Shown here: one piece after another, positions 4,730-5,249 of the stretch
Position numbering within the stretch: position 1 is the first letter of the stretch
Layout of the letters: the number at the start of each line of letters is the position of its first letter
Assembly (NCBI GenBank): GCA_024277355.1
Contig: JAJRVL010000004.1
Span: 270,001-302,000, forward strand
DNA: 32,000 bases
From: an archaeon
GTDB taxonomy: Archaea > Iainarchaeota > Iainarchaeia > Iainarchaeales > 1-14-0-10-31-34
Reading direction: 5' to 3'
Translations under genes and position numbers: made by a program
Notes under the pieces: generated by a model
Told to the model about the DNA's origin: nothing
The model's database searches: none
What the model saw: the letters and a program-made list of their open reading frames with translations, nothing else

Positions 4730-4802
4730 TAGCTCCGAGGAGATTCGAACTCCTGTCAACGGGTTCAAAGCCCGTCATCCTTGGCCACTAGACTACGGAG
4801 CT
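4730..4802 (-). tRNA. tRNA-Gln(UUG)
   Basis: Hand-folded cloverleaf: AGCUCCG UA GUCU AGUGGCCAA GGAU G ACGGG CUUUGAA CCCGU UGAC AGGAG UUCGAAU CUCCU CGGAGCU A. The A1:U72 pair is typical of archaeal tRNA-Gln. No encoded CCA. Confidence 0.9.
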
Positions 4803-4864
4803 AGCAAACCGTAGTCTAAATTTTGTTCAACCTTTTTTTAAAAGGTTGCTAGACTACGGAGCTA
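4788..4864 (-). repeat. 16-nt direct repeat (tRNA-Gln nt 1-15 plus the preceding U) flanking a palindrome and an antisense 9-mer
   Basis: CTAGACTACGGAGCTA occurs at 4788-4803 and at 4849-4864. Between the copies, in minus sense: CAACCUUUUAAAAAAAGGUUG (perfect hairpin) AACAAAAUUU AGACUACGG UUUGC. AGACUACGG is the exact complement of tRNA nt 5-13 (CCGUAGUCU). Confidence 0.85.
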
Positions 4865-5007
4865 TTAAATTAATTAATAAAATAAAAATAGTCTTATAAA
4901 TAATTTAATTTCAATAAGTTTAAATTGGTTTACTTAAAGTACTTTTTATTACTGTTTGTGTTTACAGTCCGGCTAAATAAAGTTAATAGCAAGTATGCAC
5001 TCAAACA

Positions 5008-5175
5008 GCAAAATATTTTCAAAAGTTTTTAGTAAAGCTTTTTTTGAAAAAGGTTTAGTTTGTGTTTGCAAAGCAAACCGTTTTTGATAAAACTTTTTTC
5101 TAAAAAGTTTGTTTTAATAAAACTTTTTCCAAAAAGGATTATGTTTTTGATAAAACTTTTTTCTAAAAAGTTTTT
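5008..5175. repeat. locus L1: cluster of A/T palindromic R units (about 31 nt), homologous in inverted orientation to 22049-22135
   Basis: Units lie at about 5034-5056, 5081-5110, 5111-5141 and 5142-5175. Consensus is TTTTTGATAAAACTTTTTTCTAAAAAGTTT, with a GTTTGC-AAA-GCAAAC hairpin at 5064-5078. The reverse complement of about 5020-5110 aligns by eye to 22049-22133 at roughly 85 percent identity. Confidence 0.8.
5142..5175 (+). promoter_or_regulatory. TTGA-box plus 10-bp perfect A/T hairpin ending 1 nt before tRNA-Ile
   Basis: Sequence TGTTTTTGATAAAACTTTTTTCTAAAAAGTTTTT|G. The stem pairs 5152-5161 with 5165-5174. TTGATAAAA is centred about 26 nt upstream of the mature 5' end, where an archaeal TATA box would sit. 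A related element precedes tRNA-Thr. Confidence 0.4.
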
Positions 5176-5249
5176 GGGAGAGTAGCTTAGTTTGGTGGAG
5201 CATTCGACTGATAATCGAAAGGTCGAGGGTTCAAATCCCTCCTTTCCCA
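5176..5249 (+). tRNA. tRNA-Ile(GAU)
   Basis: GGGAGAG UA GCUU AGUUUGGUG GAGC A UUCGA CUGAUAA UCGAA AGGUC GAGGG UUCAAAU CCCUC CUUUCCC A. All stems pair, and there is no encoded CCA. Confidence 0.92.

Follow-up and report, generated by a model that had tools for sequence, protein, structure and literature searches.

Randau and co-workers are reported to have described, in 2008, how tRNA genes of Nanoarchaeum equitans are transcribed without leader from box A promoters at a fixed distance (summarised in PMC3491384). Bacterial REP/BIME (REPIN) elements, some of which are transcript-end hairpins, are mobilised by RAYT Y1 transposases. In Thermoproteales, transposing tRNA introns imply a spread of intron material between tRNA genes (Fujishima et al. 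2010, reviewed in PMC4033280). For N. equitans, the distance from box A to the transcription start downstream of it is given as 26 nt (PMC3491384). In Methanococcus maripaludis, efficient binding by aCPSF1 takes at least two U4-tracts, termination increases with the number of tracts, and even strong terminators reach a median efficacy of only about 50% (PMC8716108). A literature search for a DPANN hairpin repeat at tRNA genes yielded nothing specific.

In the 32,000-nt stretch of DNA analysed here (the window), belonging to a 1.13-Mb Iainarchaeota/DPANN genome (G000), the box-plus-hairpin preceding tRNA-Ile and tRNA-Thr belongs to a dispersed module of about 30 nt, of which it represents the copy closest to the tRNA; the module is a genome-wide repeat rather than a tRNA promoter element as such. 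It shares with the N. equitans system an A/T-rich element about 26–31 nt upstream of the first tRNA nucleotide, a purine at +1 and a small-genome DPANN host, but differs in the presence of RNase P RNA and proteins, in the restriction of the element to 7 of 41 tRNAs, in a distance varying from 27 to 34 nt, in a G inside the would-be box A and in the additional, mirrored occurrence at 3' ends, in introns and behind ORFs. Like REP/BIME (REPIN) elements, the module combines a short imperfect palindrome with a conserved asymmetric tag and occurs dispersed, in copy numbers from tens to a hundred that differ among close relatives, mostly outside genes and frequently in arrays. Unlike these elements, it is not accompanied by a Y1 transposase in the genome or in four congeners, forms direct tandems instead of inverted doublets, enters tRNA introns and RNase P RNA and shows a strict polarity towards tRNA and exon ends. 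As in Thermoproteales, introns of different tRNAs carry similar sequences, whereas the modules found here, which are tagged A/T hairpins, also border tRNA genes and ORFs outside introns and belong to a DPANN, not a crenarchaeal lineage. Finally, at least two tracts of U4 or longer occur within a stretch of about 30 nt immediately behind tRNA genes and stop codons, also between convergent genes, as in archaeal aCPSF1 U-tract terminators (PMC8716108, PMC7515710); however, the latter need neither a hairpin nor a conserved tag, while here the tracts are arms of a conserved repeat-family palindrome, which is turned towards the tRNA 3' end in the orientation that has the shorter T-run.

The module family and its copies in the window

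The module consensus is composed of a T-rich tag, TTTTTGRT, and an A/T hairpin, AAAC-T(4-8)-N(0-3)-A(4-8)-GTTT. The corresponding pattern TTTTGRTNMAVCTTTT is matched 51 times in G000 versus once by the reversed control, and a profile search with nhmmer resulted in 48 copies at E ≤ 0.01. Most copies are intergenic, 8–10 reside in tRNA introns and one is found antisense within the RNase P RNA gene, where it occupies a peripheral helix. Pattern copies per congener range from 16 to 100, a sixfold spread, and the module was present in all eight other family genomes searched and sporadically elsewhere in the order. Six pattern-defined copies in G000 (seven with a TTTTAAT-tag variant) end 1–4 nt before a tRNA +1, against a chance expectation of about 0.03 obtained by hand arithmetic for 51 copies placed randomly in the roughly 14% of the genome outside long ORFs.

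Table 1. Features of the window discussed in the text.
Feature	Position	Strand	Remarks
tRNA-Gln(UUG)	4730..4802	-	
tRNA-Gln leader hairpin	4803..4866	-	-25 kcal/mol, z = -6.3
AT module copy, inverted relative to tRNA-Gln	4821..4848	+	hairpin-first in the sense of the tRNA
Three more tag-first AT module copies	5026-5055, 5081-5109, 5112-5139	+	span 5026..5139
Small hairpin module GTTTGC-AAA-GCAAAC	5064-5078	+	between array copies 1 and 2
AT module, array copy 4	5144..5174	+	nhmmer E = 2.2e-5; tag 5144-5151, 10-bp hairpin 5152-5174 (5152-5161 paired with 5165-5174), linker T5175
tRNA-Ile(GAU)	5176..5249	+	Rfam RF00005, 72.8 bits; G1 = 5176
tRNA-Asn(GUU), 94-nt intron	14469..14634	-	
Four further tag-first AT module copies	22101-22130, 22050-22079, 21995-22022, 21913-21941	-	span 21913..22130
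tRNA-Thr(CGU)	22370..22441	-	G1 = 22441
AT module abutting tRNA-Thr	22443..22469	-	tag 22469-22462, 8-bp hairpin 22462-22443 (arms 22462-22455 / 22450-22443), linker T22442
GC-rich cassette piece gcaggactgaacaaaagtgaagtcgtgc	22471..22498	-	immediately upstream of the tRNA-Thr AT module

In front of tRNA-Ile, a tandem array (Table 1) includes copy 3 with the tag TTTTAATA and terminates in copy 4, where the tag TTTTTGAT is followed by a perfect hairpin and a single linker nucleotide (U in RNA) before G1. The sequence-only reading had proposed perfect hairpins of 9–10 bp one nucleotide before G1 at both tRNA-Ile and tRNA-Thr, which is correct for the former and for both gaps, while the tRNA-Thr hairpin (arms GCAACUUU/AAAGUUGC) comprises only 8 bp. 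Folded as RNA, the structures reach -4.7 kcal/mol at tRNA-Ile (z = -1.4, with equally good folds in 22 of 200 shuffles) and -8.3 kcal/mol at tRNA-Thr (z = -2.35), each weak when considered alone; hence, their significance is due to recurrence and not to stability. The upstream sequences of both genes do align, as had been noticed, both being members of a single repeat family. Three congeners share one and the same proximal hairpin at tRNA-Ile, while the tag differs (TTTTTGAT versus GTTTTGGC); in G001 the tag reads TTTTGGCA.

The module at tRNA-Thr carries the tag TTTTGATG, starting at -28, and short T-runs (T4, T4). Synteny of this tRNA gene with the upstream class-II aaRS gene is kept across Iainarchaeota. 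Of four close relatives, only one has the AT copy as well, the remaining ones having GC cassettes. The GC-rich piece gcaggactgaacaaaagtgaagtcgtgc adjoining it heads long GC-rich leaders at other tRNAs and its reverse complement is found in trailers; the latter usage led us to discard a general K-turn function of the GC piece (gcaggaCUGA..UGAAGuc). Among the four further copies near this locus, the one at 21913-21941 has its hairpin flush with the stop codon of a plus-strand ORF (21557-21913).

The TTGA positions given for tRNA-Ile (-29), tRNA-Thr (-26) and tRNA-Gln (-28) are numerically accurate, as is the purine at +1 in these tRNAs and in tRNA-Asn. At tRNA-Gln, however, the motif TTGAACAAAA (GGTTGAACAAAA), though correctly placed, represents the tag of an inverted copy read backwards. 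This copy, whose hairpin is located upstream of its tag, forms the loop of a 64-nt leader hairpin (obtained by folding A1, position 4803 in ARAGORN numbering, plus 63 nt upstream) with a 5' arm duplicating the first 15 nt of tRNA-Gln, an arrangement kept in three relatives. The A-rich box assigned to tRNA-Asn at matching distance turned out to be coding sequence, as this tRNA starts 12 nt past the stop of the upstream ORF 14645-15364; the profile search gave no AT module match upstream of tRNA-Asn.

Placement at tRNA, exon and ORF ends

In a placement survey comprising G000 and 91 tRNAs of three relatives, the hairpin end is flush (0–4 nt) with the ends of tRNA genes and exons and also with ORF stop codons, with the tag pointing away. 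Tag-first copies flush with tRNA 5' ends amount to 17 by strict pattern and to about 20 when variant tags are added by eye, and 15 mirrored copies are flush with tRNA 3' ends. Introns contain 20 mirrored copies, 13 of them beginning at the canonical intron site (positions 36–40), and two to three tag-first copies end flush at the 3' exon of tRNA-Arg(CCU), a position within the intron that rules out a promoter. Besides, six ORF stops in G000 have a mirrored hairpin within -2 to +4 nt. In all but one of about 55 flush copies examined, drawn from related and hence non-independent genomes, the hairpin faces the tRNA or exon end, the single exception seen concerning tRNA-Leu-gag, which has a copy in tag-first orientation at its 3' end. 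The mirror rule is followed by GC-rich cassettes without TATA-like or T-run sequence as well, a leader being the reverse complement of a trailer, and leader and trailer copies necessarily have complementary tags, given the way they are built.

This placement may be brought about by a mechanism of insertion or else by selection acting on RNA folding. A pairing of leaders with trailers was considered and dropped, since GC cassettes on both sides were observed at about 3–4 tRNAs in a by-eye count versus 3.7 expected by independence. Release of whole tRNAs by the splicing endonuclease was set aside, too, because the flanking hairpins close on themselves and the continuous opposite strand of a bulge-helix-bulge (BHB) motif is missing. 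Speculatively, and with considerable doubt on our side, the mirror rule, which applies to A/T and GC modules alike at 5' flanks, 3' flanks and both intron ends, might reflect a hitherto undescribed, transposase-independent or trans-acting insertion process that reads the folded-tDNA boundary on either strand, seeding and extending tRNA introns and supplying stable-RNA genes of DPANN archaea with portable start and stop punctuation, with some tRNAs becoming near-leaderless from a non-canonical, G-containing box A.

RNase P and the geometry of the would-be box A

G000 has a full-length archaeal RNase P RNA, matching RF00373 at G000:C7:21768-22061(-) with 111.7 bits (gathering score 84; model positions 1–288) and with an intact core (GAGGAAAGUCC, ACAGAAACGA and the K-turn AUGAUGA..UGAG). 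Pop5 (75.5 bits), Rpp29 (66.8 bits) and Rpp21 (51.6 bits) each exceed the cut-off, while Rpp30, encoded next to Pop5, is marginal (33.3 bits versus a cut-off of 35); a PIN_5 search for a HARP-type protein-only RNase P was without match. The sequence-only reading had considered a Nanoarchaeum-like state, with every tRNA made leaderless by promoters at a fixed distance and with RNase P absent or dispensable. Judged by the refuting conditions which that reading itself had set, the proposal is refuted: RNase P is complete, and some tRNAs have no way of being leaderless, such as the Ser-gct/Leu-cag pair, where the intergenic space is too small for a promoter, and tRNA-Ala(UGC), 243 nt behind the 16S rRNA on the same strand. 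Moreover, the motif is missing at 34 of the 41 tRNAs in G000 and found at distances of 28–34 nt at the other seven. At ten tRNAs, a structured GC-rich cassette lies flush with +1 and the 50 nt upstream (-50 to -15) contain no 8-mer resembling box A. With nothing but the geometry at a minority of tRNAs speaking for it, such a lifestyle is extremely improbable, and tRNA 5' ends in G000 are presumably matured by RNase P.

The geometry itself had been recognized correctly. At tRNA-Ile, the 8-mer TTTTGATA at -31 to -24 takes the position that TTTAAAAA has in front of RNase P RNA, an agreement that is positional only and takes G1 as start. Canonical boxes are located at -31 (RNase P RNA), -29 (SRP RNA) and -32 (5S rRNA) and, in the case of leaderless ORFs, at -30/-29 from the ATG, whereas box-A-like 8-mers of plain tRNAs in G000 cluster at -33 to -35. 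Over four genomes, the tag starts 27–34 nt before +1 in about 20 cases, with a mode at -31, and the linker between hairpin and +1 is mostly 1 nt (range 0–4); a compensation of hairpin length by the linker was sought in these cases and not seen. Hence, the seemingly fixed distance between TTGA and +1 results from module length and flush placement, not from promoter spacing.

Nevertheless, the tag of tRNA-abutting tag-first copies might have been co-opted as box A, with RNAP starting within about 3 nt of +1, so that 7 of the 41 tRNAs would be leaderless or nearly so and RNase P would serve the rest, a possibility we take seriously though it is on the doubtful side. In line with it, the tag 8-mer is found at -31 to -24 in tRNA-Ile and Val-cac, about the canonical range, and position -1 is T and +1 a purine in every case. 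In addition, tRNA-Ile is preceded by four tandem copies with about eight T-runs, which makes read-through from upstream unlikely and requires a promoter within the array. Protein genes show related arrangements, as the ATG of ORF C2:162433-163500 immediately follows a full module copy and a minus-strand ORF on contig C11 begins 18 nt downstream of a copy and has a GAGGG Shine-Dalgarno-like box. In contrast, G/C pairs inside the TATA 8-mer are disfavoured in TBP-DNA contacts, and the supposed 8-mer has an invariant G in its middle. By this G at position 5, the tag deviates from the box A consensus of the genome (TTTAAAAA, TTTTTAAA, TTTTAAT...), and a role as general promoter element was rejected because the -30/-29 peak of 679 ORFs is due to TTTTAAT alone, TTTTGAT and TTTTGGT showing no enrichment at the position of box A. 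Copies antisense to tRNA 3' and ORF ends, in introns and in RNase P RNA show the same degree of tag conservation, and the uncompensated distance from the tag to +1 would place the predicted start inside the tRNA in about one quarter of cases. Furthermore, at tRNA-Thr of the window and at loci L067 and L090 the copy sits behind GC cassettes serving as leaders elsewhere, and the deviating tRNA-Ile tag in G001 is likewise unfavourable.

Stop signal, RNA leader or selfish DNA

The explanation that we prefer, and regard as probable by a small degree, combines a dispersed, flush-placed module with maturation by RNase P and a tag-first copy acting as stop for incoming transcription. As RNA, the tag-first strand would carry two to three U-tracts of at least 4, provided by T5 of the tag, T6–8 of the arm and the following GTTTT. 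Since this corresponds to the known archaeal aCPSF1/U-tract signal, a tag-first copy before a tRNA would most likely halt incoming transcription, in which case tRNA transcription would have to start within or just behind the module array, giving leaders of 0 to about 33 nt; both the stop or insulator role and the start-site position are predicted from the sequence. Considering all copies, the tag-first strand has T5 in the tag, T5–T8 in the arm (T4 in tRNA-Thr) and GTTT(T), whereas the hairpin-first strand offers just T3–T6 and TTTT. The module shows at least two U4 tracts within about 18–30 nt, by which U-tract terminators are defined (PMC8716108). In G000, six ORF stops and four tRNA 3' ends have a copy flush with them, in several cases between convergent genes, and module copies also close composite GC trailers. 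In 5'-flank copies, sense-strand T-runs of the arm reach up to 8, with a median of 6, versus a median of 5 (maximum 6) in intron and trailer copies, a contrast that is largely built into the strand asymmetry of the module and stems from related, non-independent genomes. Counting against the stop role, hairpin-first copies with T5–T6 are found inside introns of essential single-copy tRNAs, so that such tracts must be read through at a useful rate.

Alternatively, the module might be transcribed as part of the pre-tRNA, its hairpin, one nucleotide from the cleavage site, preventing the A/U-rich flank from base-pairing with the tRNA or positioning RNase P, with 3' and intron hairpins doing likewise for RNase Z and splicing endonuclease. 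We consider this unlikely and know of no established requirement of RNase P, RNase Z or EndA for such a hairpin. The linker of 0–2 nt between hairpin and tRNA or exon is the best-conserved variable at all four kinds of processing sites, which would fit a function in maturation, as would the complete RNase P and the GC cassettes that are necessarily transcribed, namely those in the Ser-gct/Leu-cag and 16S-tRNA-Ala spacers, where the hairpin is placed alike. Flanks are also composite: at tRNA-Thr of the window, a cassette piece is followed by the AT hairpin, and in G001 the flank of tRNA-Arg(UCG) is lengthened by a GC module that has entered between the gene and a conserved upstream block. On the other hand, tag-first copies in 5' flanks with two to three U-tracts of up to T8 would end many transcripts ahead of the tRNA (PMC8716108), and as RNA the hairpins have little thermodynamic stability. 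A leader and a trailer, being reverse complements of each other, are different RNAs, which points to a rule acting at the DNA level.

At this level, the module could be purely selfish, REP/MITE-like DNA without tRNA function, its flush placement merely reflecting the insertion preference of an enzyme, which we judge improbable. Such behaviour would agree with the sixfold copy-number spread among congeners, the tandem arrays, the location of copies inside introns and within a peripheral helix of RNase P RNA and the differing presence at orthologous sites, exemplified by the tRNA-Thr AT copy shared by one of four close relatives. The strand-symmetric placement, too, may be as expected from an enzyme recognising a folded tDNA boundary. 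However, RAYT/IS200 or TnpB as mobiliser had to be rejected because neither was found in the genus (G000–G004, genomes with 91–100 copies included); specifically, Y1 transposase (PF01797) was without match in G000, which is 96% complete, and in G001–G004, and the matches in G005, G006 and G008 do not track module copy number. Target-site duplications or terminal inverted repeats were not seen for the AT module, and the identity of the proximal tRNA-Ile hairpin in three species suggests constraint.

Whether RNase P is dispensable outside Nanoarchaeum is a long-standing question, which for the present organism is answered in the negative. The finding also cautions that conserved upstream motifs need not be promoters. 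For annotation, the modules account for acceptor stems drawn too long and for genes missed by tRNA finders in this lineage. One module family makes up tRNA flanks, the interior of tRNA introns of unusual length and protein-gene ends, offering a concrete, testable picture in which archaeal tRNA introns, leaders and trailers arise from dispersed repeats. If the module does carry start and stop signals, it would represent portable transcription punctuation in a very compact, A/T-rich genome.

Hairpin modules at the tRNA genes of the window

The closest relatives of the class-II aminoacyl-tRNA synthetase encoded in the window share 76-83% identity with it and belong to MAGs labelled Candidatus Iainarchaeum, Diapherotrites or Micrarchaeota, and the host is therefore a DPANN archaeon. 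In its genome (1.13 Mb in 11 contigs, 28% G+C, 96% complete), ARAGORN predicts 42 tRNA genes, one of these calls being false and one duplicated at contig ends, and many of the genes bear long introns. Four genes, for tRNA-Gln, tRNA-Ile, the intron-bearing tRNA-Asn and tRNA-Thr, were found in the window by ARAGORN and Rfam, the extra T at -1 that ARAGORN often includes being corrected with Rfam coordinates.

A sequence-only reading had described a TTGA box at near-constant distance (26-29 nt) upstream of tRNA-Ile, tRNA-Thr and tRNA-Gln and, at tRNA-Ile and tRNA-Thr, a perfect A/T hairpin of 9-10 bp ending 1 nt before G1. This observation is confirmed, with corrections. The 1-nt linker holds for both genes and the hairpin length for tRNA-Ile, whereas the tRNA-Thr stem is shorter; as isolated RNAs, both hairpins are weak (-4.7 kcal/mol, z = -1.4 for tRNA-Ile; -8.3 kcal/mol, z = -2.35 for tRNA-Thr). 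The TTGA positions were numerically correct, but the box at tRNA-Gln is part of an inverted copy occupying the loop of a larger hairpin in the leader. No copy of the AT module (a repeat of about 30 nt with a T-rich tag followed by an A/T hairpin) is present at tRNA-Asn, which starts 12 nt past an ORF stop. The ORF upstream of tRNA-Asn encodes a truncated class-II synthetase-like protein (239 aa, C-terminal part of PF00152), the one downstream a full AsnRS/AspRS-like protein of 433 aa. The folded tRNA-Gln leader comprised A1 (ARAGORN numbering) and 63 nt upstream; its 5' arm, AGCTCCGTAGTCTAG, is a duplicate of nucleotides 1-15 of tRNA-Gln, while its loop holds the inverted module. This arrangement, also present in three related genomes (G001, G004 and G008), looks like either the trace of an insertion (a target duplication or foldback) or a leader structure that has been conserved.

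Coordinates of hairpin modules and associated loci in the source genome (bare positions count within the window, which is C2:270001-302000 of the source genome, G000; C2 and C7 are contigs)
Feature	Position	Strand	Observation
tRNA-Gln leader	4803-4866	-	64-nt fold: hairpin of -25 kcal/mol, z = -6.3
tRNA-Ile hairpin	ends 5174; sole linker U5175; G1 = 5176	+	RNA fold of 5144-5176: perfect 10-bp A/U hairpin
tRNA-Asn between two ORFs	13125-15364	-	94-nt tRNA intron
tRNA-Thr hairpin	ends 22443; then U22442; G1 = 22441	-	8 bp by RNA fold
GC-rich cassette	22471-22498	-	cassette piece; cassettes, at many tRNA flanks genome-wide, run piece gcaggactgaaNNaaNtgaagtcgtgc, tag, hairpin AAACGGCGAAACGTTT
tRNA-Arg(CCU)	C2:302757-302977		intron with mirrored AT module first, tag-first last
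tRNA-Leu(GAG)	C7:8721-8777		hairpin of 3' tag-first copy abuts tRNA 3'-half-like fragment gcgggcagtttgaatcctccactctgca
RNase P RNA	C7:21768-22061	-	P7-P9 region bears GAAACUUUUAAAAAAAGUUUCAUCAAAAAC, an AT module in mirrored orientation, its T-run short (T4)

Copy number, polarity and spread of the repeat family

The tRNA-proximal box and hairpin belong to a family of modular hairpin repeats that are strictly oriented towards tRNA and exon ends. A listing of the 70 nt upstream of every tRNA shows the box and hairpin flush against seven of them (Val-cac, Ile-gat, Thr-cgt, Val-gac, Ser-tga, Ser-gga and Lys-ctt). A profile search from 47 seeds recovered 48 copies at E <= 0.01 and 74 at E <= 1, and the pattern TTTTGRTNMAVCTTTT matches 51 times in the genome versus once for the reversed control. 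Among these 51 copies, six (seven including a TTTTAAT variant) are tag-first and flush with a tRNA 5' end, while three (four including a variant) are mirrored, i.e., hairpin-first, and flush with a tRNA 3' end. Mirrored copies are also found within tRNA introns (eight, with none tag-first by pattern), with the hairpin at -2 to +4 nt from an ORF stop (six) and within the RNase P RNA gene (one); the module is therefore tolerable inside an essential ribozyme. The remaining copies are in tandem arrays, beside other small hairpin modules or without a clean hairpin.

Three related genomes contributed the flanks of 91 further tRNAs. Here, ten tag-first copies end beside +1 within 45 nt upstream, the four mirrored ones all being the conserved tRNA-Gln leader, whereas within 45 nt downstream 12 copies are mirrored and none is tag-first; a further ten mirrored copies are in introns. 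Pooled over all these genomes, a mirrored copy starts at positions 36-40, the canonical intron site, in 13 introns. In the two tag-first intron copies, located at the 3' terminus of the intron, the hairpin is directly against the 3' exon, and the tRNA-Arg(CCU) intron of the source genome likewise ends in a tag-first variant. Hence, at four kinds of boundary the hairpin points towards the tRNA or exon and the tag outward, with one exception, the tag-first copy at the 3' end of tRNA-Leu-gag; the fragment beyond it may be the remnant of a duplicated tRNA end. The tRNA-Arg(CCU) introns (130-170 nt; also at L060 in G001 and L103 in G004), starting mirrored and ending tag-first, thus carry terminal inverted repeats derived from the module, and the tags of these repeats could pair.

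The AT module is present in all eight other family genomes searched and sporadic elsewhere in the order; no description of the repeat family was found in the literature searched. Copy number varies sixfold within the genus (16-100 copies in five other genomes), and of four close relatives compared at the syntenic tRNA-Thr, one alone carries an AT copy, the others having GC-rich cassettes. In G001, an inserted GC module separates tRNA-Arg(UCG) from the conserved block upstream of it. Neither Y1 transposase nor TnpB was found in G000-G004 (the source genome and relatives), so that the AT family is REP-like in form but, unlike REP elements, without a cognate RAYT-type transposase in these genomes.

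GC-rich cassettes, RNase P and the tag as a possible promoter box

The mirror rule applies equally to the GC-rich cassettes. Their trailers are reverse complements of their leaders (for example, ATCGTGCTC-AAACGGCGAAACGTTT directly before the tRNA and AAACGTTTCGCCGTTT-GAGCACGAT directly after it), and they contain neither A/T box nor T-runs. Ten tRNAs have such a cassette directly against +1, with no box-A-like 8-mer in -50 to -15. The 126-nt Ser-gct/Leu-cag spacer is made up solely of a trailer and a leader cassette, leaving no space for a promoter, and tRNA-Ala(UGC) is located 243 nt past the 16S rRNA on the same strand. All these tRNAs must have long leaders, which contradicts leaderless tRNAs throughout. 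As to the suggested absence of RNase P as in Nanoarchaeum equitans, a full-length archaeal RNase P RNA with conserved core is present together with Pop5, Rpp29 and Rpp21, and Rpp30, whose gene adjoins Pop5, scored just below the cut-off; PIN_5/HARP gave no match in a search of the genome. The Nanoarchaeum-like interpretation is refuted in its strong form.

The fixed distance of the box had been taken as a possible promoter sign. Over about 20 cases, the start of the tag ranges from -27 to -34 relative to +1 (mode -31) and the linker between hairpin and +1 is mostly 1 nt (range 0-4), with no compensation for hairpin length seen. This spacing of about 30 nt follows from the module length and its flush placement, and the same geometry recurs where promoters are impossible, i.e., at intron 3' ends and, mirrored, at tRNA 3' ends and ORF stops, and is thus not promoter evidence. 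It is rather doubtful, though conceivable, that the tag serves as box A solely at tRNAs with a tag-first copy. In favour of such a role, canonical boxes precede the stable RNAs (TTTAAAAA at -31 to -24 for RNase P RNA, TTTTTAAA at -29 for SRP RNA and TTTTTATT at -32 for 5S rRNA), leaderless ORFs show a T/A signal at -30 to -24, and the tRNA-Ile tag is at -31 to -24; moreover, four copies with about eight T-runs precede this tRNA, so the start site must be inside the array. At plain, module-free tRNAs, box-like 8-mers cluster at -33 to -35; set against -31 for the promoter of RNase P RNA, this position suggests that tRNAs here generally have 5' leaders only about 2-4 nt long. However, the tag 8-mer has an invariant G at its centre, TTTTGAT shows no enrichment at the box position of ORFs, tag conservation is equal in non-promoter copies and the tag-to-+1 distance is widely spread. 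Besides, the tRNA-Ile copy of G001 has an identical hairpin but TTTTGGCA as tag and is located behind a GC cassette, and tRNA-Thr of the window, whose T-runs are short and whose tag (at -28) is preceded by a GC cassette piece, resembles part of a composite transcribed flank.

T-tracts and a possible role in transcription punctuation

In Methanococcus maripaludis, the minimal element efficiently bound by the termination factor aCPSF1 consists of two U4 tracts, and termination rises with the number of U tracts (PMC8716108); in N. equitans, T-stretches are found at tRNA gene ends (PMC3491384). The tag-first strand of the AT module carries two to three U4-type tracts. T-runs in the sense-strand arm have a median of 6 (maximum 8) in 5'-flank copies versus 5 (none above 6) in intron and trailer copies (Mann-Whitney p = 8e-4, overstated since related genomes are non-independent). 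Copies also follow stop codons, separate convergent genes and close composite GC trailers on their outer side. From these T-tracts and copy positions, which support it, we infer that the AT module acts as transcription punctuation, i.e., as a stop or insulator.
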